Shown here: positions 22,276 to 50,069 of the stretch, piece after piece | Layout of the letters: every line of letters starts with the position of its first letter | How positions within the stretch are numbered: position 1 is the first letter of the stretch | From: Geosiphon pyriformis uo1 | Taxonomy: Eukaryota > Fungi > Glomeromycota | Assembly: GCA_016748015.1 (NCBI GenBank) | Contig: JAAOMT010000708.1 | Location: forward strand, 124,001 to 188,000 | Direction of reading: 5' to 3' | Length of the DNA stretch: 64,000 bases | Translations under genes and position numbers: made by a program | The notes under the pieces: generated by a model | Told to the model about the DNA's origin: nothing | The model's database searches: none | Seen by the model: only the letters and a program-made list of their open reading frames with translations

Positions 22276-23348
22276 TATTACCCAAGTAGAAAAACCAATC
22301 CAAAGTTATAAAGAAATGTGACCAAAACATGACATAACACAGAATAACACACAATAACATTGGATAATGTGTTATAATATAGGATAACGTGTTATAATGC
22401 AGGATAACACAGAATAGCACACAATAACATAGGATAACATGTTATAATACAGGATAATACAGAATAACATGTAATAATGTCAGATAATGTGTTATAACAT
22501 AGGGTAACTAGTGATAATGTAAAAAAACGAAGCAATAACAGAAACAACAAAGCAATAGCTAGCAATAGTGAGACAATTGAAAGCAATCCTGTAAAACCAA
22601 AAGAATGTATAAAAGCAAGTAATTGTAGAAGTAAGAAAAGACAAATAGATACAAATCTCTAAACAAGAATTAAATATCCATATCCCTTCATTCTTTATTA
22701 TTTTCCCTATTTCATTTTCTGAAATAAACCAATTATTAAAGAAATCAGAATCACAAATTCATGTTCTCGAACTTCGTGGAATTTACGTGAATTAATTTTT
22801 GTCTTGTACCTCTGTTCTAAGACAGATGTTCTTAGCATAACTGTCTCAAATCTATTAATGATTTGGACCAATTACTTTTGATCACGGTGATTGACGATAC
22901 TAATTTATCTTTTCTTTCTTTTCTTTTCTTTTTCTTTTTCTTTCTTTTTTTGTCTTATTTTTGTGGAGCAGCAACATAGTAAAATTAACTGTCTGGGAAT
23001 AGACTTCATGATAGCCTGGTAAAAAAGGGAAGCTCCCTTTAAGTTTTGAATATTAACATTATCTTTGTTAACTTATCAGAAGGACGAAAAGACAATGTCA
23101 GACCCTAATGATTGCACTTGTTAGCTTGGAAAAAAAAGCTCACATTTACGAAAAACGTTGCAATCGACAAAAGACAAACTCTGTGCCTTATAACCAAAGA
23201 ACTTAATGGGTAAATTTACATCCAAAAATAGACTTTTAGAGACTGATAATCAAGACTAAGCCAACAGAATTACGTGGAAGATGCATCATCAATAATTGAG
23301 AGTGTCAAACATTATCATTTCCCATATCCACCAAGTTTACTCATAACA
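22276..23348 (+). repeat. 5' LTR of element B (10-bp-period ATAAC array ~22324-22520; TATAAAA 22608-22614)
   Basis: aligns with 29650-30726 and 58795-59831. Confidence 0.92.
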
Positions 23349-23350
23349 TT

Positions 23351-23367
23351 TGGTGCTTTCTGTGAGG
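23351..23367 (+). promoter_or_regulatory. Primer-binding site of element B (TGGTGCTTTCTGTGAGG); tRNA identity unresolved (elongator Met- or Ile(UAU)-like 3' end)
   Basis: TGG starts 2 nt after the LTR end; related TGGTGCT.. PBS follows the 5' LTRs of A, C, D and E. Confidence 0.8.
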
Positions 23368-23410
23368 TTATAAATTCACAGAGACAGAGCACCCCCAAAA
23401 ATACATAAAA

Positions 23411-26400
23411 GTGGTCACTATTGGAACAATAAGAAAAGACCACTTCTCATACAGAAAAGCACTATTTCAATACTTTCGAAAAGACCTAAGGATACCAGTA
23501 GAAACTGCTTATGCAGAAAGTAATTTTTGTAACTATATCAACACAAAAATTGACTGCTTATTAGACTGCGCAACTGATACAGAAAGACTTAAAAAACAAA
23601 TCTATCAAAGCTTATTAGGGTACTCAACAGCCATGACTACCCAAGCAATCACTGAAACTCTGCACATAATCGATACAAACATTAAATATTATGTGGCACA
23701 ATGATTCTCTCAAGTACAACAACCAGTGGAATCCGACCCTAAGGAATACAAAAATGAATTCAACAACCCTGTAACTGCCCAAGCCAAGTCCACAATCAAC
23801 AAGAAACCAAGGGTCCTTTCCCCAACAACTCTATCATACCATCAGACACTCCAAAGTAGAATTGTATTTAACCCACCCCTGAAAACTCAGTCAGAAATAC
23901 CACAAACTTCTAAAAATCCACACCCTTGGAATCAACACAGTTGGACCAAATTACTAGAAAAATATGGATCGCTGTTTGGAAATCTTACCCCAGCAGCCAG
24001 TCAAACAGAAGGAAACCCATACCAGCAACCCAGATATTAGCAAAACACGGTACCCCAATATTCTATACCTCAGAATCAACCACTCTAATATACACAACAA
24101 GTCCCGTACACTCAACCACCACCCCAGAATTATTATCAACCACCACCAATGACACAAGCAATCCCTCACTATCAAACTTTCTCTTACAGCCCATCCAGAC
24201 TTCGAGCTATAGACTATAATCAGGGATGGAGGAATCCCAACAACAATCAGGTGCAAACCAACAGTGGACTGTCTCAACCAATCCCTCACGGTCCTGCCCA
24301 ATCTCGACCAACACCAACTGGATACCCGAATCAAGCTTTCTATCTCAGTCTTATGGAAGACCAGGGTTTTAATCAATCTACACTTGTGGAAGGAGGGGAT
24401 ATAGAACAAATCTCCCAATCTTCCAAGCAAACAAAAAGCAATATCCCACCAGCCACTATTACCGAAAACACCACCCTAGCCACCATATTTTCTTTTGACA
24501 TCAATAATTTGAACACCCATAGCCTTTTTAGTAGAGCAGCCATCAATTAGGATAAACCAATAACAGCTCTATACACCAATGCCAGAGTCAGAGGAATAGA
24601 TATTAAATTAATTCTGAATAGCGGATCAGCCAGTAGCATAATCACAAAACAGTTCATGGACCAACTAGGTTGCTGAATAGACCATGCTGCTACCGTCCGA
24701 ATCATTACAGTGGATGGAAACACAAAAACCCCAATAGGAGAAATTGACAACTTCCCCTTCAAGATTAATGGAATCCAAATTTCTATCAAAGTACTTGTCA
24801 TGGAAGCTATTCAATATCAAGCTCTAGTGGGAAACAATTGGTTGTCAAAAGCCAATGTTACTCTCAACTGGAACACCCAAGAACTTCAACTCACATTCAA
24901 CAGACAGCATGCCCAAGTTCCAGCTATGTGTGGACACTTTAAAACCCAACATACTAAGGAACTTCTTATTGAATTCGAAGACACATCAATACTACCAACC
25001 ATCGAGACCTATCAGGTTTCATGGGTGGATGATTATCAAACTGAACTACTCCTACCACCAACTTGGGAAGAAAAAAGAAAAGGCAGAGCCAAAGAAGAAC
25101 TCCAATTATTATCACTAGGATACGTAACCTTGGACCAAAGAAATTTATTTTATCAACCTCTAAAACTAATATGTGTCAATTGTGAGAAAAAACTATCCAC
25201 TATGGATACATGTATTGGAGACAATAAAAAATGGCCCACCATCACCAAATACTATTGCAGACCTTGTTTACTGGAAAGATTTGGATGACTAAAATGACAA
25301 GGCAAATGAAACAACACGCTATGCCTTGCATATAGCAAAATCCTGCCAGATGAAAAACTCTGAAATGATGTGTCTGGTAGAGGAGAAACATGCGACAAGA
25401 CTTGTTAATACACCATATTAATCAACAATTGGGTATGAAAGGGAACCCCCATCGAGGATGCTTGGAAATAAGCACTCAACAGACTGGACGGTTATCCACA
25501 TGATGACCACAAAATCTGGAGAATGGCAAGTGCCAAAGCCAAAGGTGCCACACCCAAAGAAATATGAGAAATCAAGGACAATCCTTGGACACCCGAATAT
25601 AATAAACCCAACTACTCCGAGGATGATTTTTTTATAGATGACCCAAATGCATTTCAGAACCAATATCAGGAATTGGCCTCAACTTATGAAGAACAAGAGC
25701 AAAGATTGGCCGATTTGAATACTAAACTGTGCGATCACTGTTTGATCTCCTGTCACTTCCAGTACTGTGACGAATGTGATCTCATGTTCAATTTGTCTCC
25801 AAGAATACTGTTTCTAATCACCAAACAAAAACTTCAAAATCACCATCCACAACCTGACAGAAGATGTTATTGAAATCTCTGAAGGGACCCTCATCGGTTC
25901 CATATCCGCAGATATTCAGAATTCTGAAAAACCCCAGTCCATTCCAGATTTCACACAATTATTCTTATTCTGTGACATTACCTCACAAGTATGGAATTTG
26001 CCAAAAAAAAGTTACTTGTTTACACCAGAAGAGATTAATAAATTGAATTTAGGAAATTTAAGGACCCTGCAACAAATGCAACTCAAAATCCTTCTGAATC
26101 AGTATGCTGATGTCTTTGCCAGCAAAAATGAATTTGGACACACCGATATTGTGAAGCATCAGATTGATATGGGAGACGCTCGACCAATTAAGCAATGAGC
26201 TTACCGCATACTCCTATCTGACAATAATCTAATTAAGCAAGAAGTGCAACAGATGCTTGATAATGACTTAATCAAAGAATCATTAAGCCCTTGGTCTTCT
26301 TTAGTAGTCTTGGTCACCAAGAAAAACAGAAAAGTGTGATTCTGTATAGATTATTGAAAACTAAATAGCATCATGTGAGAAGATAGTTATCCCACTCCCC

Positions 26401-27443
26401 TTATCTAGGAAATTCTGGATAATCTAGGGAAAAAGAAATGGTTCTCATCATTAGATTTAGCAAGTGGTTACTGGCAAGTTGAAATGGATCCCAAAGACAA
26501 AGGAAAAACAGCATTTACCACTTGAGATAGAAACTTCGAGTTTAACGTAATGCCTTTTGGACTTTGTAATGTTCCTACCACGTTTCAATGCCTGATGGAT
26601 GTAGTATACAAAGGAATCCTTTGGAAATCAGTAGTAATCTACCTAGATGACACAAATGTGTTTTTCGAAATATTTGATGACTATCTGCTCCACCTGCAAC
26701 AAGTCTTTGAATGCCTTTATAGTGCTGGATTGAAACTCAATCCTGAGAAGTGCTTCTTTGAAAAAACCAAGTTAAAATTCCTAGGACATGTAATTGACAA
26801 GGATGGAGTTAAACCTGATCCAGATAAAGTACAAAAAGTCAAGAATTTTCCAGCCCCAATCAACCTCAGAGAATTACAAGGATTTCTAGGATTGGCAGGA
26901 TATTATTGTTGATTTGTCAAAGGTTTCTTGAATATTGCAAAACCACTCCATCAATTGTTGTCCAAATACATACTGTACTTGTGGAAAGAAGATCAACAGA
27001 AAGCATTTGACTATCTCAAGCAGTGATTGATCACATCCCCAATCCTGATTTACCCAGATTTCATTAAACAGTTCATTGTTACTATGGATGCCTCAAAAAA
27101 TGCTCTAAGAACAGTCTTATCACAGATAAGACTGAACAATAGAGAACACCCAGTTGCCTATGCTAATTGTAGCACTAGCCCAGCAAAAAAAAATTACAGC
27201 ACAACAGATCTGGAATGTCTTGCCATTTATTGGGCCGTACAGACTTGAAAACATTACCTCAGTCAACCATTTGACCTATATACCGACCACAAAGGACTTA
27301 TTTGGTTACTCAACAATCCACAACTAGAAGGAAAATATGCGAGATGAAGTACTTATCTGCAACAATTCTCACTCAAAGTCTATTACAAAGAAGGATCCAA
27401 GAACACCAATACTAACAGTTTGTCAAGGATGCCACAAACCTAA
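23411..27443 (+). pseudogene. Element B ORF1 (truncated Gag, protease, Cys-rich domain, RT, RNase H)
   Basis: LIL(D>N)SGS protease, MPFGLCN and IYLDD RT motifs, TMDAS RNase H; ends ..SLSRMPQT*. Confidence 0.88.
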
Positions 27444-27453
27444 TTCCAGACCC

Positions 27454-28820
27454 ATAAACACACTCACTTATCAATAACTACATCAGTACCTATCGACACT
27501 ACATTTCAAGGAAATATTATCTCAACAGGAACAGAGTACCATACGAAAACAAGCCCGAAATTATTTTATTCAAGACAACCAACTATATTGACAAGAACAC
27601 CAAAACCACCCCAACCCACAACGACTAATCAAGAACAGTGAAAGAGAAACTATACTATATAGTGTGCACTCAAATCTGACTGCAGAACACTTTAACAAAG
27701 ATGCTACCCTCAAGAGAATACTAAACTTATACTATTGGCCAACAATATATAAAGACATTTTCGAATACATGCTCAATTGTGATGTATGTCAGCAAAAAGG
27801 AGGAGCAAGATCAACAGAACCACTTTGACCCATTCCAGTTGGAAATCTATTTGATAGAATTGGGATTGATTTAGTTGGACCTTTTTTAATTACATCCCAA
27901 GGAAATTGCTATATCGCTGTAGCCATAGACTATCTTACAAAATGGCCAGAAGCCAGAGCAATCCAAGTGGCCAACGCCAAAACAGTAGCCAAATTTGTGC
28001 ATCAAGACCTAATTTGCCAACATAGATGTCTGAAAGAATTATTATCTGATCAGGGAACACACTTTGTTAATAATATGCTGACTGAACTAAGCCAATGGTT
28101 TGAAATAAAGAGACCCTTATTGTTACCATACCACTCACAAACAAACGGACTAGTAGAACAATTTAACAGAACACTGTACAAAGCACTAGCAAAAATAAGT
28201 TATGAAAACAGACAAGAATGTGACTTATTCATATCTTCTGTACTCTTTGTATACCAAACATTGAAACAAATATGACTCAGTTCACACCATTTGAACTAGT
28301 CTATGGAAGAAAAACTATATTACCAATTGAACGAGTGATACTGTCATACCCAACAGAAACAATCAATGAAGAGAATTTTGAAACTACCTTATACCAAAGA
28401 ATGTACCAGCTAATGAAAACGTTGGAAAACAATCGAAGAACAGCAGCTAACAATATTAGTCATGCTCAAGAATGACAAAAAGAAAGACATGATAAACACC
28501 TATCAGAACAACCAATGGAATTCAAGATTGGAGACCAAGTACTGTTACATCGTACAAAAGCTGAGAAACAGTGGAGTGGAAAGTTTGACCCAAAGTGGGA
28601 CAGTTCATTCCACATACACAAAGCATTAGGAAATGGAGCTTACAAATTACAATTGGAAGACAGGATTTTAAAAAAAGTAGCGCATGGAAATCGGTTAAAA
28701 ATTTATTATGTAAAACAGGAATCATCATCATTAATATCTCAACTAGGAACACAAATTTCATTAATCAGACCAGAAGATATACCACGAGATCTGGAATCAA
28801 TTATTGTCATTGAAATGTAG
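27454..28820 (+). pseudogene. Element B integrase as a separate ORF (HHCC, DDE, GPY/F-type C-terminus)
   Basis: VHS..EHF..CDVCQ, IGIDL, SDQGTHF, QTNGLVE, KWDSSF; begins AT(G>A)-AAC out of frame with ORF1. Confidence 0.85.
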
Positions 28821-28823
28821 ACA

Positions 28824-29635
28824 ATGGGCAGCAAATTAAATTGGGGAATTCAAATATATATAGTATCCGAAAAGCAGCAAGAAACGATAGAAATTTCAAC
28901 ATAGACCTTTCAGATCAAATTTTAAAATTATCTAAACAATTATTTGAAACAATTCAAAAATCGACATCTCAAATAGAAATAACAATTGATAAAAAAGAAA
29001 TATGGTATAAAAATAAGAGCAGAAGAGGAGAGAATGAAAGTTCAATTAGAACTAAACATTCTCTCTTCTACCCACCACTTGAAAGGCAATGTTGGAGGAA
29101 AAATTGCCTTCAGACAGAAGGTAGAAAAGAAGAAAGCAAAGAATGAGAAAAAGATTACAAAAGAAGATACTTGGTCCCCGAGCTTGAAGAAATAAAAGAA
29201 GCTTTAGTTCGTGAGACCGAACTCCCTGAAACAGGGGAGTGGACACCTGACAATGCCCAGAAATGGAAAGAAAGACTTCCTCCAGCTTATTGGTTTTACA
29301 AAATTGGAGAACAGCTTGACTTGAAAACACCATACGAAGACCTCAGCCAGAAAACGTTCAACAAAAAAGCAATACAACAAGTAGAAAAATTCATAAAGAA
29401 AAACAACCTGACCCTACATTACAAAGCAGCATACCAACTATACACCACTTTCTAACATTGCCCAAATGTACTACTGAATGGATCTATAAAAACCATAATG
29501 GTTAACAACATAGGACGAATAACCAATCAACAGTTCAAAGACCTACAAAAGGCAATATTCAAGGCAACAATTGAACATTACACAAACAAAGCCATGATAA
29601 CAGATACATACAATTTTGCAGGAGCTCAATTTTAA
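28824..29635 (+). pseudogene. Element B ORF3, unknown function (env position), frameshifted; start approximate
   Basis: coding fragments 28841-29455 continue to ..NFAGAQF* at the PPT; homologous to the same region of A and C. Confidence 0.7.
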
Positions 29636-29649
29636 AAAGAGAGGGATAA

Positions 29650-30726
29650 TATTACCCGAGTAGAAAAACCGATCCAAAGTTATGAAGAAACATGACCAAA
29701 ACGTAACATAATACAGAATAACGCGCAATAACATTGAATAATACATTATAATATAGGATAACGTATTATAATGCAGGATAACACAGAATAGTGCACAATA
29801 ACATAGGATAATGTGTTATAACACAGAATAACACAGAATAACATGTAATAATGTCAGATAATATATTATAACATAGGGTAACTAGTGATAATGTAGAAAA
29901 ATGAAGCAATAACAGAAACAACAAAGCAATAGTTAGCAATAGTGAGACAATTAAAAGCAATCCTGTAAAACCAAAAGAATGTATAAAAGCAAGTAGTTAT
30001 AGAAGTGAGAAAAGACAGATAGATATGAACCTTTAGACAAGAATTAAATATCTATACCCCTTTATTTTTTATTATCTTCTCTATTTCATCTCCTGAAATA
30101 AACCAATTATTAAAGAAATCAGAATCACAAATTCATGTTTTTGAACTTCATGGAATTTACGTGAATTAATTCTTGTCTTGTACCTCTGTTCTAGGACAAA
30201 TGCTCTTAGCATAACCGTCTCAAACCTATTAATGATTTGGACCAATCACTTTTGATTACGGCGATTGACAATACTAATTTATCTTTTTTTTCTTTTTTTT
30301 TCTTTTATTTTTCTTTTTTTTTCTTTTTCTGTCTTATTTCTGTGGAGCGGCAACATAGTAAAATTGACTGTCTGGAAATAGACTTCGTGATAGCCTAGTA
30401 AAAGAGGGAAGCTCCCCCTAAGTTTTGGATATTAACATTATCTTGTTAGCTTATCAGAAGGGCGAAAAGACAATGCCAGACCCTAATGACTGTGCTTGTT
30501 AGCTCGGAAAAGAAAGCTCACATTTACGAAAAATGTTGTAATTGATGAAAAACAAACTCTGTGTCTTATAACCAAAGAACTCAACAGGTAAATTTACATC
30601 CAGGAATAAACTTTTAGAGACTGATAATCAAGACTAAGCCAACAGAATTATGCAGAAGATGCATCATCAATAATTGAGAGTGCCAAACATTACTATTTTT
30701 CATACCCACCAAGTTTACCTATAACA
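29650..30726 (+). repeat. 3' LTR of element B
   Basis: preceded by PPT, ends ATAACA, followed by TSD CTGA. Confidence 0.92.
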
Positions 30727-33014
30727 CTGATTAGCTGTGGCAGCCAGAGATGCAAGTCTGTCACAACTGTGGTAAACAAGGTTACATTAGAGCTAACTGC
30801 CATTTTTATAGTAATCCACAATCAGGAAATCAATACCAAAACCCTGATCACAGCATTTAAACTCCACATTATTACTCAAATCAAAGCCAATATTAGCTCA
30901 CGTATCTGCCAATAATATAGGAGTTAATATATCAACCACCTATATATCAACCCCCAATTTATCAACCACAGCTACAAGTAATATATCAACCATAGCCACC
31001 AGTAATTTATCAACCTTAGCAACTTCAAACAACACTCCAAAACCCCATCCAAATAACATCAGGAAACCCCAGATTCAAAGTCACCCAAAACTGAAGATTA
31101 GTGATGGTGGTTCACCAACTGATCTCCAGTTTACCAAATCACTTATTAAGATTATACCAGTGGAATTCAGAAGCTGGGTACACCTAAAACCCAAATTTTC
31201 AGAACTATTTAAGTTTTCTGATAACCCCAGAAGATGTCCCATCCAACAAACAGAAAACTCATCACATACCAACACCTACTAACAATATTCCACCAGCTAT
31301 CATCACTAAGAATAAATTACTGGATGCTATCTTCTCATTTAAACTTGAAGAACCATCAGTTACGCCATTATTTAGTGGAGCCATTTTTAAAAAAAAACCT
31401 ATCACTGTTATGTATACTGATGCCAAAGTTGATGGCCATTCCATCAAATTGATTCTAGACAGTAAATCAGCTGGCAGCATTATCATAAGACAACTTATGA
31501 ACCAATTAGATTGCCGAATTGATTGAACTGCTAGTGCACAAATCATCACTGCTGATGGAGTGACAAAAACTCCAATCAGCAAGATTGATAACTTCCCTAT
31601 AAAAGTTAACAGCATCATTGTGTTAATCAAAATATTAGTTATAGAAGCCACTCAATACCAAGCACTTGTCAATAACAATTGGCTGTCTAAAACCAACGCA
31701 ACACTTAATTAGAACACACAGGAGCTTCAACTTAGCCAAAACAGTTAACACACATACATACCAATCACATGTGGTCATTTCAAGACCACTAACATGCCAG
31801 CACTACTTATCGAGTTTAAAAAAGAAGAGAAAAAACCTACCTAAAAAGCCTATCAAGTATTATGAATTGAAAACAACCACAATGAATTACTGCTAATACT
31901 TTTTTGGAATAACAAAGAAAAAGAAAAACAAAAGGAAGAACTTACCTGAAATACCAACCAAGCTTGGAGAACTGACAATAAACTAAATAAATTATCAACT
32001 TGAGAGTGGAAAAAAAACAATAAGGAAAAAGGAAAAGAGAAAAAAGAAAAAACAACATTTACCAGCACTACTACTTATAATTCCTACACTTATACTACTC
32101 CACAACGATCTACCTATTGCCAACCAAAGCTCATATGTGTTGATTGCAACAAGAAATTGTCATTAATGAGTACATGCTATGGCAATAATAAAGAATACCA
32201 AACAGCAACTAAGTTTTATTGCTGTCTATGTGTTATTAAACACTTTGGAAGACCAAAACAAATGAAAAAATAGGATAATGAACCATGCTTGGCTTGTGAA
32301 AAAACTCTTTTAGACAAAGGAATGTGGAATGACATTCCTAAACAAGGAAAAATGTGTGGCAAATCATGTTAATACATGATCCTAATAAGTGATTGAGTTA
32401 GAAAAGGAACACCGATAGAAGCCATCTGGAGAAGAACTGTAAAATGTTTGGATAGATGTCCATACAATGATAATGAAATTTGGGAAATGACTTTTACCAA
32501 AATTGAAGGAACATTATTAGAAGAAATAAAGATGATCAAAAATAACTCTCCAAAGCCTATAGAACTTGACTAAGACCCAGAACCAGTCATAAATCTCTTG
32601 GATCTAAAACAATTCTACAAACACTACCAGAAATTAGCACTCACTAGAAAGGAACAAGAGCAACAGTTGGAAAAAATAAACACAAGACTATGTGACCATT
32701 ATTTGATCCCATGTGACTTCCAATATTGTAATAAGTATGACCTCATTTACAATCTACCACTATGCATGATCTACATGATTCTAGAAGAAGAAAAAACAAT
32801 TAGCAGCTGTGCATCAGAATTGGAATCAACTTTCAATCCTGATTCAAACTCTGACAACAATGGCAACAAAAATAATGGTTCCAGCTCTGTTCCAAATGAC
32901 AACAAAAATTACAATAATTCAAACTCTGAGTCAAACCCCAAAACATACATTGCACTTCCAGATCTTACCAAGGAACAGAAACTTAAATAGTTTAGTAATA
33001 ACAATAAAGATATT

Positions 33015-33405
33015 ATGCCAGAACATGCACATAATACTAATGCAGGATTTGATCTAAGATATCCAGAAAAAGATCTTATCAAATTAGAACTCTATTTGCA
33101 CACTTGCATTGATCTCAAAATAGCATTAAAAATTCCAGCAACAATAATGGTTCAGTTAGCATTTAGGAACAGCTTAGCCAAAAAGGGAATCAACATCAAA
33201 AGAGGAATAATTGACACAGAATATGTAAGAAATATTATTGCTATGTTACAAAATGACTTAAAAAAGACATATATTATAGATCCAAATGAAAAAATAGCAC
33301 AGACAATATTTCTGTCTCTGGTTAAAATAGCTCAATTAGTATCAGTAGGAAACTGGAAAGAATTAGAGATAACAGCAAAAGAGATACAAGGATTTGAATT
33401 CATGA
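33015..33405 (+). pseudogene. dUTPase domain in element A ORF1
   Basis: NAGFDLRY, FRNSLAKKGI, GIIDTEY, EKIAQ and a decayed motif V (QGFEF). Confidence 0.85.
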
Positions 33406-35272
33406 ATAGAATAAATGTACTAATTAATATGGCAAAGGAAGAAATTGTTGACAAAAGAAAAATTATCTTCATCTGTCAACCAATTTCTATTCCACCATAT
33501 GACCAGTACATGGTAGTTATAAAGAGAAAAGTAAAGGATCAAGTTCAGATTTTTGAGGCAGAAGCAACACTTTGTGAATCAGGAGAGATTAGATTAGTTA
33601 ATTTATACATACCAGCCAAGAGCCACAGTTACATTAAAATTTCCATTTACAACAACATGAGAAACATCATCAAAATACCAAAAAGAACTACTATTGGATA
33701 CTTAACCACCAAACTTGAAGACCAACTGCCAAACACTATTCCAGACTTTCCACAACTGTGTGGATATGTAGATATTACATCTCAAATTATATATGGATAA
33801 GAAAAATGTTATCTGCTCCAACCAGAACAATTAGAACAGATGAATTTGGAAAACTTAGATTCACTACAATGTATGCAGCTTAAAATGTTACTCAACAACT
33901 TTAACAACATCTTTGCCAGTGAAAACAAATTTGGCAGAACTGACATAATTCAGCACCAGATTAAGACAGAAGATGTGATGCCAATTAAACAAAAAGCATA
34001 CAGAGTAACATCAGCTAGCCATGAAATCATTTATCAAGAAATCAACAAAATGCTTGACAATGGGCTAATTCAGCCATCAATGAGCCCATGATTGTTACTA
34101 GTGGTACTAGTCCATAAGAAAAATGGAAAAATTTGCTTTTGTGTGGATTACTAGAAACTAAATAGAATAACAAAAAAAAATAGTTACTTGACTCCAAAGA
34201 TCCAAAAACTGTTCAATGTTTTTGGAGGAAAGACATAGTTTTCAACTTTAGACTTAGACAGTGGTTATTGACAAGTAGCCATGAAACCAGAAGACAAAGA
34301 GAAAATGGTTTTTACAAATCAAAAAGGAAATTTCGAATTTGAAGTAATGCCATTTGGCTTAATGAATGCTCCAGCCACATTTCAATAACTAATGGAAATT
34401 GTCTATATGAGACTACTATGGAAATCAGTAGTTGTATACTTGGATAACACCAATGTGTTCTCAAAAACATTTGATGATCATCTGCATTATCTCCAACAAG
34501 TATTTGAAAGACTCAGATGAACAGAATTAAAATTAAATGCAAACAAATGCTTCTTTGGCAAAACTGAACTCAAGTTTTTGGGACATGTTGTAAGCAAAGA
34601 TAGTATCAAAACGGATCCAGATAAGATTGAGATTGTTAAGAACTTTCTAGTACCAAATAATTTCACAGAATTAAAAGCATTCTTGGGATTTGCTGGATAC
34701 TACTACTGCTTTATTAAAAACTTTTCCAAAATAGCTTAACCACTACACCAATTCCAAACAAAAAATACCAAATATAAATGGACTGAAACTCAACAAAAAG
34801 CTTTTAATATATTAAGAAGAAAGCTTATTCAAGTTCCAATACTAATCTATTCAAATCATAGCAAGCCATTTATAATTACAACTGATGCATCTGGTCAAGC
34901 ATTGGGAGCAGTACTATTGCAAAGAGAACCAGATAAAAGAGAACATCCAGTAGCTTATGCCAGTAGAAACTTAAGTCCAGCTGAAAAGAACTATAGAACT
35001 CTAGCACTAGAACACTTAGCTATCTATTGGGCTGTCATCAAATGGAAAGAATACTTGAGTCAAAAGTTTGATGTATATACTGATCACAAAAGATTGACTT
35101 CAATCCAAAAGCAAGAATTTGGAAATGATCACTATGTCAGATAGAAAATAAAACTTTCACCATTTAATTATACAGTATATTACAAAAAAGGAAAAGAAAA
35201 TGGAAATGCTGACGGATTGTTATGAATGAGACAAATCTAAAAACATTTTTAACCCAAAAATATAACAAAAAG

Positions 35273-36649
35273 ATGAATTTACAAAAATGCCAACAACTCC
35301 AACATTATATAAATACCCAATTGTTCAAGGAAAAATTATCTCAAAAAGAACAAAACAACATAAAACAGCAATTAAAATATTTTATCAACCATTAAAATAT
35401 CTTTTACCAGAAGAACAAAAAAAATCCAAATCAACCAACCAGAGTAATTACAAAATTGGAGAAAAAAACAATATTATTCAACATGCACTCAAACCCAACA
35501 GCAGAACATTTTCACAAAGAAACAACCATAAAAAGAACCAGAAAAAGATACTATTGGCCATTAATGTATCTGAACATTATTCAATATGTTCAAAATTGTG
35601 ATGTTTGTCAAAGAAAAGGTGGAACAAAACCCAGTGAACCATTGAGACCAATCAAAGTGGAACAACCATTTAATCATATTAGAATTGACTTAATCAGACT
35701 ATTAACAATTACCAGCAGAGGCAACAGATATATTGCAGTAGCCATAAATTATCTCACAAAATGGCCAGAAGCAAAAGCCATTCAAAAAACAGATGCAGAA
35801 TCCATTGCCAAATTCATTCATTAAGATTTGATTTGTCAACATAAATGTTCAAAAGAACTATTATCAGATCAAAAAACTCACTTTGTAAATAGAACATTGG
35901 TGAAATTAAGTCAAAGATTTGGGATAAAAAGATTATTATCATCATTATATCATCTACAAACAAATGGGTTAGTTGAAAGATTTAACAGAACATTGTGTAA
36001 AACCATTGCCAAAATCAGCCAAAAAAACCAAGATGAATAGGATTTGATTATACTATCAGTATTATTTACTTATCGAACAATGAAACAAGACACTATACAA
36101 GCAACACTATTCAAATTAGTATACGGTAGAACAACAACATTACCAGTAAAGATAAAAGTTAAAACATATCCAACAAAACCAATAGCAGAAAAAAATTTTC
36201 AAAGAACATTGTTGAAAAGAACATATAACTTAATAGAGACATTAGAAAACACATGGCAAAGAACAGCTGATAACATCCAAAAGTTACAAGAAAAACAAAA
36301 AGAAAGACATAATAACCAACTACCAAAGAAACCAGTTGAATTCAAGATTGAAGACAAAATACTTTTACATCATACTAAAGTGGAAAAACAATGGAGTGAA
36401 AAATTTGACCCCAAATGAGATGGACTATTTCACATAGAAGAAATTCTTGGAAATGAAGCTTATAAATTAAGGTTAAACAACAAAATCTTAACCAAAGCAG
36501 CACATGGTGATCAACTGAAACAATATTACCATATAGTATCATTATCTACCAGCAATATTCTCCAATTAAAAGTACAGAGAATACTAGTCAAACCAAATGA
36601 GATCTTACGAGATCTAGAACCAATTATAATAATTGAATCAAACATGTAA
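35273..36649 (+). pseudogene. Element A integrase as a separate ORF (MNLQK..; one frame of 459 codons)
   Basis: MHSNPTAEHF..CDVCQ, IRIDL, SDQ, QTNGLVERFN, ends DLEPIIIIESNM*. Confidence 0.88.
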
Positions 36650-37345
36650 AATTGAACAACAACAAAAAAAGTATATAAATACATGGTATATGTGACAAAA
36701 GACAGCAAAAAAATGGAAATTACTGATGGCATTCACTCACTAGCACAACAACTTTTTCAACTGATCCAACAACAAGAAATGGAAATTACAATTAACCAAT
36801 AAACTATCAGATACACAAACATCAGAAAAAGACCATGAGATAAAATATGAAGAAAAACAGAAAACACTGTGGACAAAATAATCACAAAAGTGAAATTGGC
36901 AATAGAAATACAACCAAAAGTTACCTAATATCAAGAGTTGACTATAAAAACTTGGAATTGGTGAATACAACAATTTTCAAGAAACTTTTGTTACTTTTAT
37001 TTAGGACAACACTTGAACATTCAAAGCTTGTATATGGATAAAACAAAACAATTATTTAACACAATAATACTGTAACAACTAAAACAATTTGTGGGGAAGA
37101 ACAATTTGATCACACAAACAAGAGCCATTTATTGGCTACACACCAGATTTTAAGATAGACCAAAAATCTTACTCAATTCAGAAATGAACTCTATTACCAT
37201 TAACCAAATGAGAAAAATAACCAATGCTCAATTTGAAAAATTACAGAACAAAATAGCACAAGTAATTCTTAAAAAAGAAGTTCAAAGACAGAGAATTAGA
37301 ATTAGGAAATCTCGATGGAGCTTAATATTAAAGAAGAGGAAATAA
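36650..37345 (+). pseudogene. Element A ORF3 remnant plus polypurine tract (~37330-37345)
   Basis: DGIHSLAQQLFQLIQ and FVGKNNL..LHTRF..ILLNS..ITINQMRKITNAQFEKLQ align with ORF3 of B. Confidence 0.65.
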
Positions 37346-38158
37346 TATTACTTATAAAATATAAGAAAATATATTAGCATATAAATTAGCCAATCAGAAG
37401 TAGCCATAGTAAATATGGAATTCCAGGATTCCAGAAATTTTAGGATTCTCATACAAAGAATTGCAGGATTCCAGAATTCCAGAATTCCTCTCAAAGAATT
37501 GCAGAATTCCAAGAATTCCAGAATTTCTGGTATGAAGAATTGAGGAATTGAGGAATCTCAATTATATATATATATATTAGTAATATTAAAAGTAAAAAAA
37601 GGAACCTCCAAGTTTAGATTTAATTTAAGCAACCTTCTCTATCACAAATATCAAAATAAATAATTATTTACTATTTTAAATCTACTCTTTACTATTAACA
37701 CTTCATGTTGATAGTAATTAATACTTGAACACACTAGAACAATAGTTCTTAATTATGGCTATTAATAGGATACTAACTTTTATTGTCTTGGCTTATTTTT
37801 TTATTTTTTTTATTTTTTTATTTCTTTTGTTGTGTACTAATTGATTAAAGAATTAAAGCACTGAGTTATTAATGTCAAGAATTGCCTGATAAAAGATCTC
37901 TGCAAATGGATAGAGCACATAAAAGAATTACGGATTACTTATTAGAGAAGTACCAGCCATCAAGCTAAAGAAAAAAATTGATAAAATTGCAATTCTGGGA
38001 AGCTATAGATAAACAACTATTGAATCTCTGTCCATTATACAAAAAACTTAACCAAAACCTTTAAATAATAATACCTTCCAATCAACCCTATATATCTATT
38101 GAGCACCAAGTTACAGATTTGTTATTTGTTTTAAGACCCCAAATAATTACTTGTAACA
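37346..38158 (+). repeat. 3' LTR of element A
   Basis: aligns with 19725-20563; ends GTAACA, followed by TCAG. Confidence 0.9.
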
Positions 38159-38162
38159 TCAG

Positions 38163-38374: not shown

Positions 38375-39322
38375 TATTACCAGTAAAATTTTAGCTATTA
38401 ATTAGCATGGAATTATTCTTATAATTCTTATTATTAATTAGTATATATTATTATCATTTTTATTATTACTTATTATTTAATCAATAACTCGATTTATACT
38501 ATAGAAATTAAGATAATCAAATTACACAATATTCTAAACCATGTAACATAGTCAAAATTTGCCGAAATTAATGAAAATTGGCCGAAATAATCAATAGTTT
38601 AGTAAAATAACTTGTAGTTTGCTGAAATGTATTTTTAGTTTACTAAAATTATAGCAAAAAGAAAAGTTCAAGTTCAAAGACTAGTATTACAACAAGTTGT
38701 ATAAAAAAAGAGCTATTCTCTTTAAGAAAATATATCTTTTCATAGTATTTTATTATAGTATTTTACTTTAGATATTTTAATTAGAACAAATCACTTTTAT
38801 ACTTTTCAAATTAAAATTAAATATTTGAAAAACCAAATCCTTTAAACTATTATATTTGAAATTTTTTCAACACAACTAACATTTTGAAATTAATTAGCTA
38901 TCAATTTCAATAATCTGTTAGTGACTTCAAACCTAAATAGAAAACGTTTTCCTTGTTAGAATTTTATTTTTTTTACATTTTTTTTATTTTTATTTTTTTT
39001 TCTTATTATAATCATTAAGATAGTCTACAGACAAGATTTTTGTAAAAGAGTTGACTTTTACAGCAAAGTAACTACATATTTTTAGTGAGCTTTCAAATGA
39101 GCAATTCCTGGAAAAGAGTTAATATTTACTATAACATAATTACATAAAGTAACTGGCATAGAATTGGTCATTTCATTTATAAGCCCAGCAGTTCAAATTA
39201 TAAATGATAATTTGAAGATAAATTCAGTTATTGGAGGTTTAATTGCTTTCAGAAAACGTAAAATTAGCAACAGACAGACATTAACAACATTCAAAAAAAG
39301 AGACCAAAAACCTTCAATAATA
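38375..39322 (+). mobile_element. Solo LTR of the element C family, opposite orientation to C, with non-matching flanks
   Basis: colinear with the reverse complement of 49092-50069 from TATTACCAG to CCTTCAATAATA; flanks CTAT vs TCAG. Confidence 0.85.
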
Positions 39323-40932
39323 TCAGCTATGAATTCTGCATCTGCTTTTTGAATTGCTTTTGCCTTTGGCCATTTTGTAAGATAATTTATGACTACTGTG
39401 ATATATTGGTTGCCTTTTCTGGTTATTGTTAATAGTCCAACTAAGTTAATTTCAATTTGATTAAATAGTTGTTCTATTTTAATTGGTTTTAGTAGTTTAC
39501 TAAGTCTTGTTCTTTCTCTTTTTTGACAAGTATTACAATTTTGAATGTATTAAATGGTGTTTGAATACATTGATGGCCAATAATATTTTTTTTTGGTTTT
39601 TTTTATGGTTGTTTCTTTATAAAAGTGTCCTGCTGTCAAATCTGAATACATGTTGTATAGTATTGTTTCTTTTTCTGATTCTGTGATTACTCTAAATGAT
39701 TGATCTGGATCCTTTCTGTTTTTTCAATATAATATATTTTAGTGGATAATAAAAGATTTAGATTGTTGTTTTATGTTGTTTTGTTTTTTGGAGATAATTT
39801 TTTCTTGAACTGCTGGGTATTAATATAGTATTAGAGTTGTTAATATTTTTGTGTATTCATTTTTTGTTATATTTTTGTGTTGAAAATGTTTTTTAGATTT
39901 GTTTTATTCATGACAAACTGTCAGCATTTCCATTTTTTTTCTCTTTTTATAATATACTGTATATTTGAATGGTAAAAGTTCTATTTTTTATCTGGTATAG
40001 TAGTCATTTCCAAATTTTTGCTTTTGGATTGATGTTAATCCTTTGTGATTAGTGTATATGTCAAATTTCTGGCTTAAGTATTCCTTCCATTTTATGACTG
40101 CCCAATAGATAGCTAAGTGTTTTAGTGCTAGTGTTCTATAGTTTTTTTTAACTGGACTTAAACTTTGGCTAACATATGCTACTAAGTGTTTTTTTCTATC
40201 TGGTCTTTTCTGTAATAATACTGCTCCCAATGCTTGACCTAATGCATTAGTGGTAATAATAAATGGCTTGCTGTGATTTAAATAGATTAGTACTGATGCT
40301 TGGATGAGCTTTTTTCTTAAAATATTAAAAGCCTTTTATTGTTTTTCAGTTCATTCATATTTTACATTCTTGGCTTGAAGCTGGTAAAGTGATTGGACTA
40401 GTTTAGAGAAGTTTTGGATAAAGCAGCAATAATATTCAGTGAATCCCAAAAATGCTTGTAGTTCTATCAGATTTGTTAATATTAAAAAGTTTTTAACAGT
40501 TTCAATTTTGTCTGGATTTGTTTTAATATTATTTTTGCTTATGACATGTCCTAGAAATTTCAATTTCATATTGCTAAAAAAACACTTGGTTGCATTCAGC
40601 TTTAATTCTGCTTTTTTCAACCTCTCAAACACTTGCTAAAGATGGTACAAATAATCATCAAATGTTCTTGAGAACACATTGGTGTTATCCAAATATATAA
40701 CTACTGATTTTCATAGCAATTCAGTATAGACAATTTTCATAAGCCATTAAAAGATGACTGGAATATTGGTTAAGCTGAATGACATAACTTCAAATTTTAA
40801 ATTTTTTTTTTGGTAGTCAATGCAGTCTTTTTTTTATCAGCTAAATTCATGGCTACTTAATAATTATTATTTAGATCCAAGGTTGAGAACCATTTTTTTT
40901 CTCTGAAAGTATTGAATAATTTTTAAATACAT

Positions 40933-41413
40933 TGTTACCAGAGGTTTTTGGTCTCTTCTCTTAAATGTTGTCGATGCTTGTTTGCTGTGAATTCACGTTT
41001 TCTGGATGTGGTTGAACCTCCAGTAACTGAATTTATCTTCAAATTATCTCTTATAATTTGAACTGCTGGGCTTATAAGTGGAATGGCCAATTTCTTGCCA
41101 GTTACTTTATGTAGTTACGTTGTAGTAAATGTCAACTCTTTCCCAGGAATTGCTTGTCTGGAAGCTCACTAAAAATGTGTAGTTACTTTGCTGTGAAAGT
41201 CAACTCTTCTACAGGAATCTCGTCTGTAGGCTACCCTAATGATTGTAATAAGAAAATAAAAGAAAAATAAAAGAAATGTAAAAGAAATAGAATTCTGTCA
41301 AGGGAAACGTTTTCTATCCAGGCCTGGAGTTACTAACAGTTTATTGAAATTGGTAGCTAATCAATTTCAAAACGTTAGTTGGGTTTTGAGGATTTTCCAA
41401 GTGCAATAATTAA
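40933..41413 (-). repeat. 3' LTR of element C (visible part; the rest lies in the gap)
   Basis: 10 differences over 481 bp versus 49092-49572, counted by eye. Confidence 0.92.
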
Positions 41414-41600
41414 NNNNNNNNNNNNNNNNNNNNNNNNNNNNNNNNNNNNNNNNNNNNNNNNNNNNNNNNNNNNNNNNNNNNNNNNNNNNNNNNNNNNNNN
41501 NNNNNNNNNNNNNNNNNNNNNNNNNNNNNNNNNNNNNNNNNNNNNNNNNNNNNNNNNNNNNNNNNNNNNNNNNNNNNNNNNNNNNNNNNNNNNNNNNNNN
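41414..41600. other. Assembly gap (187 N)
   Basis: N run. Confidence 0.99.
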
Positions 41601-41900
41601 CATTTGGTGGAATACTAATTGGAGTGAACATTAGGTTTTCTCTTAAAGCAAGCTTTAAAAGTTCTGGCAGGTGAATTCCAGTATAACTTCTTGTGTTCTT
41701 CTTATACAGGTGATATTTTTGTGAATTTGGGGCTAAATTTGTAACTACTTCTGTTTAGGTATAATTAATGTGGTTTCCAGTAACAGTAATGGATAATTCG
41801 GGTATTGTTTTTAAAGCTAACATTAGTTTTTGGGATAATTGTTGAATGTTTTGAGAAATAGTTATTATAAGCAATTTGAAATAACAGAAAATTATTTTTG
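41601..41900 (-). pseudogene. Element C ORF3 fragment
   Basis: ISQNIQQLSQKLMLALKTIPELSITV resembles LSDQILKLSKQLFETIQK..IEITI of B. Confidence 0.5.
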
Positions 41901-41986
41901 GTGTATGAGTTTTTATGTTATTTTTGTTTTGTTTTTGTGAGATTGTTTCTAAATTATAAGAAGATAACTATAATAATAAATTTAAA

Positions 41987-43372
41987 TTAAGTGTTCAAGT
42001 TGGGAGGCTGTTCAATGACAACTATTGGTTCTAAATTTCAGGGAATGTCTTTGGGATTGATTAAAGGAGAATGTGTACCAATTTGTGAAATTAATGGTTC
42101 AGGATTGTTTCTGGAATTATAGTGTTTCAAACAATCTCCATGTGCAACTTTTGCTAGAATTTTGTTATCAAGTCTTAGCTTGTATGATCCGTTGCCTAAA
42201 ACTTCATAGATAAAGAATAGTTTATCCCATTTATTCTCAAATTTTCCACTCTATTGTTTTTCAGCTTTAGTTCTGTGTAAGAGAACTTTGTTTCCAATTT
42301 TAAATTCATTAGTGACTGGAGACAATTTGTCATCATGCCATTCTTTTTGTTGAGCTTGGGAGTGTTCAATATGGGTGGCTGCTATTCATCGTTTTCCTTC
42401 CAATGTGCTAAGCAGAGTGTAGGCTCTTTGCTGAAGCATTTCTTGGAAATTGTTTTCATCAATTGGTTGTGCTAGATATGTTTCCACTGTGAAACTAATT
42501 GGTAACGTTGCTGTCCTTCCGTAAGTTAAATCAAATGGTGTGTGTTTCGTGGTATCTTGTTTTAGTGTTCTATATGCTAGTAACACTGATAGAATAAAGA
42601 GATCCCATTCTTGCTCAAAATTGGTTGAAACTTTGGTTAATGATTCACACAATGTTCTGTTGAACCGTTCTACAAGTCCATTTGTTTGTGAATAGTAGGG
42701 TGAAGATAATGGTCTCTTGACATTAAATTGTCCACAAATTTCCTGGATTAAATTGTTCACGAAATGTGTTCCTTGATCAGATAAAAGTTCTATTGGGCAT
42801 CTATGTCTACAAATAATGTCTTCATAGATAAAGTTTGCTACTGATTTTGCATCTGCCCATTAAATGGCTCTGGCTTCAGGCTATTTGGTGAGATAGTCTA
42901 TGGCTACTACAATATAATGGTTCCCTTGGTTTGTGATAGGTAGTGGTCTGACTAAATCGATACCAACTCTGTCAAAAGGCTGTCCAACTTTGATTGGGTT
43001 TAAAGGTTCTGGTGGATGAGTTCCTCCTCTTTTTTGACAACTATTACAAGATTCAACATATTCGTGAATGTCTTTTTTCATTTGAGGCCAAAAGTAGTAT
43101 TCTAGTATTCTTTGGGTGGTGCTGTTTTTTCCGAAGTAGGCTGATGAAGGATCTGAGTGCATGTTGTATAATATAGTCTCTTTTTCCTGTTCTTGTATTA
43201 ATCTGAGTGGTTTGTCTGGGTTTTTGAAATTTTGATGATAAATAATGTTGTTATGTAGAAAATATTGTTTGGCTTGTTGTTGTAATTGATGTTTTTTATC
43301 TGGAGACCAATCTGTTGGGATTGTTAATGTTTCCAAATATCGTTTGAGATCGTTGTAGTTTTCTGAATTCAT
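41987..43372 (-). pseudogene. Element C integrase as a separate ORF (MNSENY..; one frame of 462 codons)
   Basis: MHSDP..CNSCQ, VGIDL, SDQGTHF, QTNGLVERFN, ends NLEPIVVIEQPPNLNT*. Confidence 0.9.
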
Positions 43373-43425
43373 TGTTTGTTGGCTGTTTTGGTTGGTTAAG
43401 TTGAGTGTTGGTTTTTTGTGTTTTT

Positions 43426-46400
43426 CTAATCTTGTCTCATTCTGGAGAAACAGTCAACATTGGTGTGGAGTTTTCCTGGTTTGTGATGAACTATGTATCG
43501 ATAGTTTGCTAGAAATCCTGTCCATCAGGTTTGTTTTGCATTCAGCTGAGTATTTTTGTTTTGAAGCCATTTGAGTCTAATATTATCAGTGATAATATCA
43601 AATTTTTTAGGCCTGAGATAAAGGTTGAAGTAGTGTAGAGCCCAAATTACGGCTGTTGTTTCTAGTTCTGTAGCAGGATAGTTTTTCTCAGCTGGTTTTA
43701 ATGTTTTGCTAGCATAAGCAATTATTTGCTCATTTCCGTTGTTATCTAGTTGTGATAAGATGGCACCAAAGACAGTATACGAAGCATTTGTAGCTAGTCA
43801 AAATCAGTTGCTGAAATCCAGGTAGGCGAGAATTGGAGCTGTTGTCAGTTTTTCCTTGAGGATTTCAAAAGCTTTTTGGTGTTCGGTAGTCCATTTGTAT
43901 TCAATGTTTTTGGTAGTAAGCTGGTTGAGGGGTTTTGCAATTTCTGAGAATCTTTTGATAAACTTCCAATAGTAGGATGCTAATTCTATGAATCCTCTTA
44001 GTTCTGTAGTGTTTCGAGGAGTTTTGAAGTTTTTGACAATGCTGATTTTTCCAGAGTCTGGTTTGATTCCATCTTTACTAACAATATGACCAAGGAAGGC
44101 CAGGCTTGTTTTTCCAAAGTAGCATTTTTTGATATTGAGTTTTAGTTCTGCTTTTTGTAATCGTTGAAAAACTTCTTGCAGGTGTTTTAAGTGTAATTCA
44201 AACAATGGAGAATAAACATCAGTATTGTCAAGATAAATGACTACTGACTTCCAAAGAAGTCCTTGGTACACAACATCCATTAATCTCTGAAACATTGCTG
44301 GTGCATTGCATAATCCGAAAGACATTACATTGAACTCATAATTTCCGTCTTGGGTGGTGAATGCTGTTTTGGGGTGATCGTTGGGATCCATAGCAACTTG
44401 CCAGTAACTGCTTTCTAAATTTAGTGTTGAAAAGTATTTGGATTTTCCAAGAGCATCTAACATGTTATCAATCCGGAGAAAGGGGTAGGCGTCTCCAATT
44501 GTAACACTGTTGAGCTGTCAATAGTTAACACAAAATCGGATCTTTCCATTTTTCTTTTTAACTAGCACTACAGGTGAAGCCCAAGGACTCATAGAGAGTT
44601 GGATGAGCCCATTGTTAAGCATTCGTTGTACTTCTTCTCGGATGAATTGGTGGCTTTCTAGAGCAACTCGATATGCTTGTTGTCTTCTTGGTTTGGCATC
44701 TCCTGTATAAATTTGGTGTTGAACCAAATTGGTTCTTCCTAAGTTATTGTTGTTTTCAGCAAAGATATCAGCAAATTCTGCAATTAGCTCTTTGAGCTGG
44801 GTCTGTTGTTGTGGTTCAAGTTGTCCCATGTTGATTCGAGATAGTTTTTCCATGACAACATGGTAGTTTTTGGAGCTGGGGTTTGGGTTAATTTTTGGTA
44901 GTGAATGTTCAGTAATTTCAGAGAAATTGGGAACTGTTTGGAGTAATTCTTGTTGAAATATATTACTGTGAATAACTCCAATTTCTAAATTATTTAATAA
45001 AATTATGGGGTAATTATTGGGGTTGTAAAAAGTAACTCAGACTCTCTTTGTTCCTTCTGGAATATAAATGTTTGGGATTGAAATATTATGTTCCAAGCAG
45101 ACTTGTTCATTGGACTCAAAAATTTGTTGTGTGGTTGTTGGCTTTGGGCAGGTGTAGATTTCTGGATGTTTTCCAAAGGGTGAGATGATAATCGGTTGTG
45201 GAAGTCTGAGAATCTGGTGAGATTTGTTCTGTGTGTTAAGAGCTATATTAACTAGAACTGTGAATCGTCCAGTTGAACCAAAACCTTGAGTTCCTCTATC
45301 ACTTTTTCCTAATTGTTTTCTTTGATTGACTAGTTGCAAACCTGAAATGTTGATTAAGAGTAGGTAAATAGCTTGGGCAATTTTTTCAGCATGTTCGATC
45401 TTGAATGGTTTGTCAGTTTCATTTTGAAGCATTACTGTAATGTCTCCAGTATATCCAGCATTGATTATTCCTTCTCTGACATTGATTTCTTTGCTTGCCA
45501 AAGAGGACCGGGAGGTGATTTGAACCATTGCTCCTGGCAAAATTTCGAGTGCAATTTTGAAATTGATTTTTGTGAGAGATTTGGGTTTGAGAACAAGAGT
45601 ATCCTTGCCTGGATATCTTAGGTCATATCCAGCATCAATTTTGTGTGCTTTTTCGGGTTTTATTTCTTGTCCATTGTTGTTAAAGTATTTAAGTTGTAAG
45701 GCAGGCTGATTTTTGATAAGGTAGATAGGTGTTGTTTCAATTTCTTCCATTGCTTCAGGTTCTTCAAATTCAATTTTGTTCTCATCATTTTCACTGGGCA
45801 AGGGGATACTAAGAGCGTAGCATTCAGGACACCACTGTTCATCGCAAGGCATAATGCATTCTTCACATAGCCTAATGTTCATTTACTCTAATCATTGAAT
45901 TTGAGCTTCTTGGGTTGGGTAGATGTGACTTGCAATTTGGTGGTAGACTTCTACTTCATCTTCATAATTGAATCCAGTTAATTCCATGGTGTATTCAATG
46001 TATTCTGCTTCCTTCATTTGATGAACATCTTCTTTGGTAGCTCTATTAATTAATGCCATTGCTAGATCAAAAATCATCTCAGCATTATAGGGGTAGTGAT
46101 AAAGTTTGTTAAGAGCACTGTTGTATGCCGCATTAAAGAGTGTTCCTTTTTTTACTTTTTCTGAAATTGATAAAGCATATTGGCAGGTCTGATTGCAGAC
46201 TCCTCCTCTCATGGCTATATCAATCTAATTGCATTCTTCCGGTAGCATATTTCCACAAGTCAAACAAGGGATGTTGTCCCATTTTCCGCTCCTTTTTATT
46301 AGATGACCCCATCGTTCTCTGTGACAAGCCTTGCAGTAATAACAAGTATGATTTTCATATTTTTCTTCAAGTAAAATGCAGGCTTCCATTGACAATAGTT

Positions 46401-49045: not shown

Positions 49046-49091
49046 TTTGAAGTTGTTTTTTGCTGTGTTGTTTCCGTGGGAGAGCACCAAA

Positions 49092-50069
49092 TGTTACCGG
49101 AGGTTTTTGGTCTCTTCTCTTAAATGTTGTCGATACTTGTTTGCTGTGAATTCATGTTTTCTGGATGTGGTTGAACCTCCAGTAACTGAATTTATCTTCA
49201 AATTATCTCTTATAATTTGAACTGCTGGGCTTATAAGTGGAATGGCCAATTCCTTGCCAGTTACTTTATGTAGTTACATTGTAGTAAATGTCAACTCTTT
49301 CCCAAGAATTGCTTGTCTGGAAGCTCACTAAAAATGTGTAGTTACTTTGCTGTGAAAGTCAACTCTTCTACAGGAATCTCATCTGTAGGCTACTCTAATG
49401 ATTGTAATAAGAAAATAAAAGAAAAATAAAAGAAATGTAAAAGAAATAGAATTCTGTCAAGGGAAACGTTTTTTATCCAGGCCTGGAGTTACTAACAGTT
49501 TATTGAAATTGGTAGCTAATCAATTTCAAAACATTAGTTGGGTTTTGAGGATTTTCCAAGTGCAATAATTAAAGAATTTGGTTTTTCAAATTATTTGATA
49601 TTTATTTCTTTTTGTGTGTATAAAAATGGTTCTGAGTGATAATCTAAAATAAGATATATTTTCTCGAAGAGAAAAGCTCTTCTTTTATACAACTTGTTGT
49701 AACACTATTCTATGAACTTGAACTTTGCTATTTTCTACAATTTCACTGAACTAAAGATACATTTCAGCGAACTACAAGTTATTTCTGCGAACTATTAGAT
49801 ATTTCGGTAAACTATTAATTATTTTGGTGAATTTCTACAAATTTCGGTGAACTTTTGAATGTTACATAGTTTGGGGTATTGCATGATTGATCATCGCAAT
49901 TAGGTTACATTTGTGTTGTGTACAATTTGGGTTATTAATTAAATGATAATTTTGGACATTTTTGCTAATGTAATAAGTAATAATTTGAAATGATAATATA
50001 TGCTAATTAATGATAGGAATTATAAGATAATTTCATGCTAAATAATATTTCTAATTTCATCTGGTAACA
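49092..50069 (-). repeat. 5' LTR of element C (TTCGGCGAA-like array ~49740-49855; TATAAAA 49683-49689)
   Basis: TGTTAC..GTAACA termini, adjacent to PBS and TSD. Confidence 0.92.

Follow-up and report, generated by a model that had tools for sequence, protein, structure and literature searches.

Four Ty3/Gypsy elements with integrase outside the Pol frame

The window, that is, the whole 64,000-nucleotide stretch of Geosiphon pyriformis DNA analyzed here, carries four LTR retrotransposon copies of the Ty3/Gypsy type, designated A to D, two of which are inserted within the other two (Table 1). The four junctions between RNase H (RH) and integrase (IN) lie where the initial annotation had placed them; the stops, the spacers of 32, 10, 53 and 32 nt in A, B, C and D, and the integrase starts all match. 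Alignment to the IN profile begins at profile position 1 at nucleotide 35273 in A and 43372 in C. The ATA with which the B integrase opens is presumably a decayed ATG, and the D integrase is truncated near 39322, beside a C-like LTR remnant (38374-39313). In element C, Pfam recognizes Ty3-type capsid, dUTPase, RT, RNase H and integrase domains, and TTTGGTGC is present past the 5′ LTR; element B gave neither a dUTPase nor a capsid match. The copies had been described as representing four distinct families. There are really three, as A and D belong to one family (78.6% identity, 4.3% transversions over 938 nt), while the other five pairs among the window copies share 58–62% identity with 18–23% transversions.

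All four copies are decayed, with 4–10 stops in RT-RH and decay dominated by transitions; the two LTRs of B differ by 104 transitions and 0 transversions. Near-pure transition decay of this kind would be the expectation from methyl-cytosine deamination. The youngest copy, C, whose LTRs are 97.9% identical over the compared parts, is split between RH and IN like the rest. Elsewhere in the window, a fifth, B-related element with LTR, gag, PR, Cys insert and dUTPase occupies 58795-64000 on the plus strand, where it is truncated by the window end, and three host ORFs encode mitochondrial ribosomal L37 (14871-15365, plus), a CUE-domain protein (2408-3202, plus) and an 819-codon product without a Pfam match (4902-7361, minus). 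The named homologues suggest an arbuscular mycorrhizal fungus as host.

Table 1 Retrotransposon features of the window, in window coordinates
Feature	Position	Strand	Remarks
Element A, decayed Ty3/Gypsy LTR retrotransposon	19725..38159	+	gag interrupted by element B
Element A LTRs	~19725-20564 and ~37346-38159	+	87.9% identical to each other
A RT-RNase H	33825..35240	+	TAA 35238-40 at end; 9 internal stops per 459 codons
A spacer, 32 nt, ATG-free	35241..35272	+	
A integrase ORF from ATG AAT	35273..36649	+	-1 frame relative to RT-RH; decayed; profile positions 1-416
A probable ORF3 remnant	36680..37345 (approximate ends)	+	likeness to B ORF3 by eye only
Element B, nested in A gag	22276..30726	+	4-bp target duplication CTAA/CTGA
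Element B LTRs, ~1.07 kb	about 22273-23348 and 29647-30726	+	90.3% identical
B RT-RNase H	26028..27443	+	TAA 27441-43 at end
B spacer, 10 nt	27444..27453	+	
B integrase from ATA AAC	27454..28820	+	+1 frame; internal frameshift near 28265
B probable ORF3 remnant	28824..29640 (approximate ends)	+	
Element C, youngest, nested in D RT	40933..50069	-	termini TGTTAC...GTAACA; 4-bp target duplication ATGT on both sides
C Gag	47552..49093	-	Retrotrans_gag, Ty3_capsid (Pfam)
C PR, Cys-rich insert, dUTPase, RT, RNase H, single frame	43426..47781	-	TAG 43428-26 at end; 11 internal stops
C spacer, 53 nt, A/C-rich, ATG-free	43373..43425	-	
C integrase ORF from ATG AAT	41987..43372	-	H2C2, rve, GPY/F-type end
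Element D, A family, split by C	39322..55500	-	
D junction	RNase H stop TAA 39895-93; 32-nt spacer 39861-39892; integrase from ATG (AAT) 39860	-	

The split is shared by intact relatives

A search with the IN profile yielded 44 metagenome loci, of which seven lacked upstream DNA, five were distant (25–31% identity) and 32 were scorable (27 after removal of near-duplicates). The split was found in 32 of 32 scorable loci: RNase H ends in a stop 1–16 codons past its last motif, and IN then begins with an ATG at the homologous first codon. The IN ORF is intact in 16 of these loci (409–434 codons) and open to the contig end in five more, and unbroken Pol and IN ORFs with the split between them occur in, for example, L004, L011 and L013. 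Among single cases, L001 offers just 69 nt of upstream sequence, IN is broken in L034, and L040, one of the five distant loci, has RH and IN in one frame. Relative to Pol, the IN frame is offset by 0 in seven loci, by 1 in 12 and by 2 in 13; the spacers measure −4 (ATGA) in one locus, −1 (TAATG) in two, and 19–102 nt in the rest. The claim that spacer length is never a multiple of three thus holds within the window and fails in the lineage, where the seven relatives at 0 mod 3 carry in-frame stops.

Database proteins were likewise evaluated, from protein sequence rather than from downstream DNA. All 12 longer IN homologues are proteins of 330–429 aa without RT. On the Pol side, 76 of the best 150 matches were multi-stretch or unusable, and full RT-RH stretches alone were kept. 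Among the best 120 RT-RH matches, 84 terminate no more than 25 aa from the N-x-D-x-L-S-R motif, 13 continue into longer IN-free tails, 12 are without the motif, and 11 contain IN, these last being five Rhizophagus clarus and six animal gene models. The five fused R. clarus models omit the RH end motif, and their junctions differ among the three displayed; we counted them against the split and against re-initiation. Gag-Pol proteins of Rhizopus delemar, R. arrhizus and R. microsporus (903–1389 aa, known here as protein sequence only) terminate in ADFLSRLGY, and close relatives are also present in Rhizophagus and Paraglomus. An IN scan of viral contigs gave no relative among 17 pattern matches. 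A search for long fused Gag-Pol-IN proteins was filled by multi-copy animal and plant gene models at no more than 51% identity and is uninformative on fused members of the clade.

Most integrase-less Pol proteins form a single clade

A control set was assembled by scanning for RT first. It comprised 86 loci, of which three lacked the RH end and 14 lacked a downstream IN; 64 of the 69 scorable loci were fused and five were split or broken. Four of these five look like linker decay, and the fifth, L073, is genuinely split and belongs to the IN-less clade described below. The 79 Gypsy RT-RH loci L045-L123 come from prokaryote-labelled assemblies and most likely represent eukaryotic contamination.

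In an 80-row RT-RH tree, built by a quick search without bootstrap after exclusion of 32 near-duplicate or long-branch rows and with split rows picked as nearest matches, 40 of 42 IN-less rows group together in a clade (SH-aLRT 99) that contains none of the fused rows; two earlier trees were similar. The clade unites the three window families, L073, Rhizophagus-type loci and a Rhizopus-cluster protein, and P0260 and P0278 are the IN-less rows outside it. It is placed among fused Gypsy-type Pol rows, in a tree composed without named GyDB reference lineages or outside families. One subclade (P0103, P0117, P0119, P0129, P0134, P0141, P0150) bears an acidic or Cys-rich tail of 165–405 aa after RNase H, in which there is no IN and almost no Pfam match. 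Taken together, the layout with RH and IN split is almost certainly real and lineage-wide, and its hosts are likely mycorrhizal and Mucor-type fungi.

Gag-Pol frames, accessory domains and ORF3

Gag through RNase H had been described as one frame. This is so in A, across the B insertion, and in the intact relative L029 (2018 codons, with protease domains scored by Pfam), but not in C, where the frame changes between Gag and PR, nor in B and D, which have indels, nor in the Rhizophagus-type relatives. In these last, gag and pol overlap, and TTTAAAC, which we take to be a −1 slippery site, lies just upstream of the gag stop in five of five examined. The proposal of a tricistronic lineage survives as (Gag-)PR-RT-RH / IN / ORF3 on the strength of the intact relatives, the control set and the tree; the Cys insert and the dUTPase that it had included are not lineage-wide, a dUTPase being unlisted for most of the best 120 Pol matches. 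A Nudix domain (PF00293) occurs in Pol of P0136 and P0139, dUTPase in other members, and the ORF that follows IN in L028 (L028:2220-2501) contains what is presumably a Nudix-box-like motif.

ORF3 of L004 (L004:4516-4926) and its homologues specify a 137-aa protein modeled as all-helical (pLDDT 93). A Pfam scan of five ORF3 proteins returned no family in three, a weak DUF match in one and an HTH in that of L011; there was no Atlas match at 0.9 or above, and Foldseek comparison with PDB and BFVD gave nothing at E 0.001. The best structural match (Z 4.9, rmsd 3.4, 75 aligned) is no demonstration of a new fold. The probable remnants in A and B did not match the ORF3 profile of the relatives. On the L009, L013, L016, L029 and L038 contigs, ORF3 is followed by gag, probably through assembly across collapsed LTRs or tandem copies.

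Features of the spacer and the integrase start codon

The integrase ATG is preceded by a purine at −3 in 25 of the 27 non-redundant loci and followed by G at +4 in 26 of them, and from its sequence context it looks like a real initiation site. The 24 non-redundant spacers (1987 nt in all) contain no ATG, where mononucleotide shuffles give 21.4 and dinucleotide shuffles 11.2 ± 2.8. As ATG is the sixth most depleted spacer trimer, with five others as depleted, and as the spacers are homologous and not independent, we treat this depletion as moderate evidence. The good −3/+4 context together with the ATG-free spacers makes the IN ATG the likely true start. In 12 of 14 loci an ATG lies no more than 26 nt beyond the IN stop, so that ORF3 is probably expressed differently from IN. 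The Met-Asn start reported in the initial annotation is real in A, C and D (ATG AAT) and does not extend to the lineage, in which the G at +4 mostly gives Met-Asp. The IN of L028 has a natural Met-Asn start, and in copies A–C decay has changed 7 of 27 invariant Asp residues to Asn; an Asn after the IN Met would appear to be a local trait at best.

Within 21 long spacers (L002-L024, L039), the triplet GA(C/T) recurs at approximately −40, −26 and −13 from the IN ATG, with sites 13–15 nt apart and one of them missing or shifted in some spacers. The triplets are anchored on the ATG rather than on the RNase H stop, and divergent families, among them L011, L013 and L015, share them. No consensus RNA fold was obtained for these 21 spacers, the triple pattern was unmatched in the window, the overlap loci and the short-spacer loci, and a look-up for an earlier record of the motif returned none. 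The 139-nt RH-IN spacer of L073 (L073:1570-1900) contains an ATG ORF that extends beyond the IN start.

Routes that would bypass or fuse the junction were queried at the DNA level. Across 36 junctions, the IN frame is closed over the spacer in 24 and open in 12, including A, B and C; in-register slippery heptamers are absent from all 12. Five junctions would permit a fusing GT-AG intron with the RH motif retained, and 31, all four window copies included, would not. Frameshifting or removal of the spacer, either of which could have restored a fused Pol, is thus absent as a route in most loci. A conserved acceptor of the foamy virus type was not found: in 6 of 31 loci the interval from the last upstream ATG to the IN ATG contains no YAG, YAG positions are scattered in the others, and AG is depleted (25 observed against 63.8 expected).

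Possible routes to a separate integrase

We lean, by a little, towards a Ty3/Gypsy lineage in which the frame ends after RNase H and a separate, ATG-started IN is likely made by ribosomes that terminate and re-initiate on the full-length RNA. Termination-reinitiation itself we hold to be an even call. Under such a model, ribosomes finishing RNase H would restart at once where stop and start overlap (TAATG, ATGA), and elsewhere would cross an ATG-free, unstructured spacer of 10–102 nt to the first AUG, much as proposed for mammalian L1 ORF2; the triple GA(C/T) element of the long spacers may aid the restart. IN would be made with its mature N-terminus, rendering a protease cut unnecessary, and might reach the particle or the cDNA by binding RNA or RT translated alongside, in the manner of foamy virus Pol. 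The sequences support the view that IN of this lineage would need both an initiation and a packaging route of its own.

Several observations would favor re-initiation: the UAAUG/AUGA overlaps in 3 of 32 loci, the ATG-free spacers of the other 29 as set against the ATGs that follow the IN stop, the purine at −3, and the lack of a consensus fold in the long spacers. Within the clade, spacing grades from overlap up to roughly 100 nt, which is most simply read as one re-initiation mechanism. Re-initiation downstream of an ORF of 900–2000 codons is usually inefficient, and the upstream ATG ORF in the L073 spacer speaks against a strict first-AUG rule. In caliciviruses, influenza B, CHV1 and SART1, overlaps of the UAAUG/AUGA type mark re-initiation (PMC10275272, PMC5972666), and for L1 re-initiation over a 63-nt inter-ORF spacer has been proposed (PMC10275272, PMC5972666, PMC2699510). 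TURBS-type restart declines with distance (PMC5972666), so spacers of 77–102 nt would need an L1-like traversal.

ATG-free spacers and a good Kozak context suit ordinary scanning on a subgenomic mRNA just as well. Such an mRNA, whether transcribed from a promoter inside the RNase H end or the spacer or, like that of foamy pol, produced by splicing from the 5′ LTR, is a possible but unlikely source of IN. The ATG-anchored GA(C/T) triplets of divergent families could be a promoter or leader element, and a precedent exists in foamy virus Pol, made from a spliced mRNA (PMC3705302). A subgenomic mRNA gives no reason, however, for keeping the stop-start overlaps of three loci, and its spliced form is at odds with the scattered YAG positions and the AG depletion noted above. 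Internal recruitment of ribosomes by the spacer, through an IRES-like or rRNA-tethering element that dispenses with upstream translation, strikes us as improbable: it would account for a conserved, ATG-anchored and unstructured motif in the 21 long spacers, but that motif is unmatched in the window, the overlap and the short-spacer loci, and spacers of 10 nt and overlaps leave little room for any such element.

That the split exists at the DNA level only, with a fused Pol-IN restored by frameshift, readthrough or an intron, is very improbable. The open IN frame in A, B and C, the five fused R. clarus gene models and the five junctions that permit a fusing intron can be cited for it; but most junctions have a closed frame, none of the open ones has an in-register heptamer, 31 of 36 allow no fusing intron, all three frame offsets occur, and the fused R. 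clarus models drop the last RNase H motif. General frameshifting or readthrough was rejected on the ground that it fails in most junctions. Decay or assembly error in dead copies, which the stops and transition-dominated damage of the window copies might suggest, has a negligible chance of being correct and is refuted by intact relatives with the same split in unbroken ORFs and in many independent assemblies. The initial annotation had argued that point decay cannot explain the spacers; judged by the relatives, the control set and the tree, the split lies far beyond chance or decay.

Comparison with known systems

By termini, domain order, capsid and integrase these are Ty3/Gypsy (Metaviridae) elements like yeast Ty3, sharing TG...CA LTR ends, a PBS-like site, a 4-bp target duplication, a Ty3-type capsid, the domain order Gag-PR-RT-RH-IN, and an integrase with H2C2, DDE and GPY/F. 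Against solved structures, the IN profile matched Ty3 Gag-Pol best (E 8e-41, aligned over positions 35-415) and PFV IN second. Unlike canonical Ty3/Gypsy, they hold IN outside the Pol ORF (32 of 32 relatives, four of four window copies) and have an additional ORF3, and some members add a dUTPase, a Cys-rich insert or a Nudix domain. A survey of fungal LTR elements places IN within pol (PMC3248453). The split is apparently an undescribed variant of the Gypsy gene layout that deviates in this one feature, IN within Pol.

In SART1, L1, CHV1, caliciviruses and influenza B, too, one long ORF is followed by another in a different frame; the stop-start overlaps find their counterpart there, and the 10–102-nt spacers resemble the 63-nt spacer of L1. 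Those re-initiation systems are non-LTR elements and RNA viruses, whereas here an LTR element would produce an integrase from the downstream ORF. Foamy virus provides a second parallel, its Pol being synthesized independently of Gag and requiring a packaging route of its own, which shows that Gag-independent packaging is possible (PMC3705302); there, splicing separates Gag from PR-RT-IN, while here the split falls between RH and IN. A third is Ginger1, whose Gypsy-type integrase of about 400 aa stands alone and combines H2C2, DDE and GPY/F with an N-terminal extension; it has relatives among YPYY-type Gypsy integrases including Gypsy-1-I_RO (PMC2836005). Unlike in Ginger1, the present IN sits within an LTR element behind RT-RH and is without terminal inverted repeats or a protease tail. 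Identity with a Ginger1 DNA transposon was rejected, since IN lies between RT-RH and the 3′ LTR.

No prior description of a separate-IN layout was found in the literature covered, which included PMC12440569, PMC7947760, PMC9040795, PMC2836005, PMC11952901, PMC11075540, PMC8647823, PMC3248453 and PMC11943222; Repbase and GyDB records and subscription papers may annotate such elements. Lokiretrovirus, Odin and Troyka were considered as precedents and set aside, the accessible descriptions giving gag/pol/env or a single Gag-Pol or being silent on the point.

Implications

The rule found in textbooks is that LTR elements and retroviruses package integrase as part of Gag-Pol or Pol. A clade that keeps IN outside Pol across Glomeromycota and Mucorales breaks this rule. 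More speculatively, and we think it doubtful, an old fungal Gypsy clade may have turned IN into an independently translated, transposase-like gene, with restart after an ORF of 900–2000 codons through overlaps or an undescribed triple-GA(C/T) element and with IN delivered without Gag-Pol packaging, a living intermediate between LTR retrotransposons and Ginger1-type integrases. For annotation, gene predictors appear to invent introns at the RH-IN junction, and domain-based screens for transposable elements may call intact elements broken. Reporter assays are feasible given the intact members in Rhizopus and Rhizophagus relatives. The layout raises the question of how ribosomes of eukaryotes would resume initiation past a very long ORF when the spacing ranges from overlap to 100 nt, and of how an unfused integrase locates its own cDNA.
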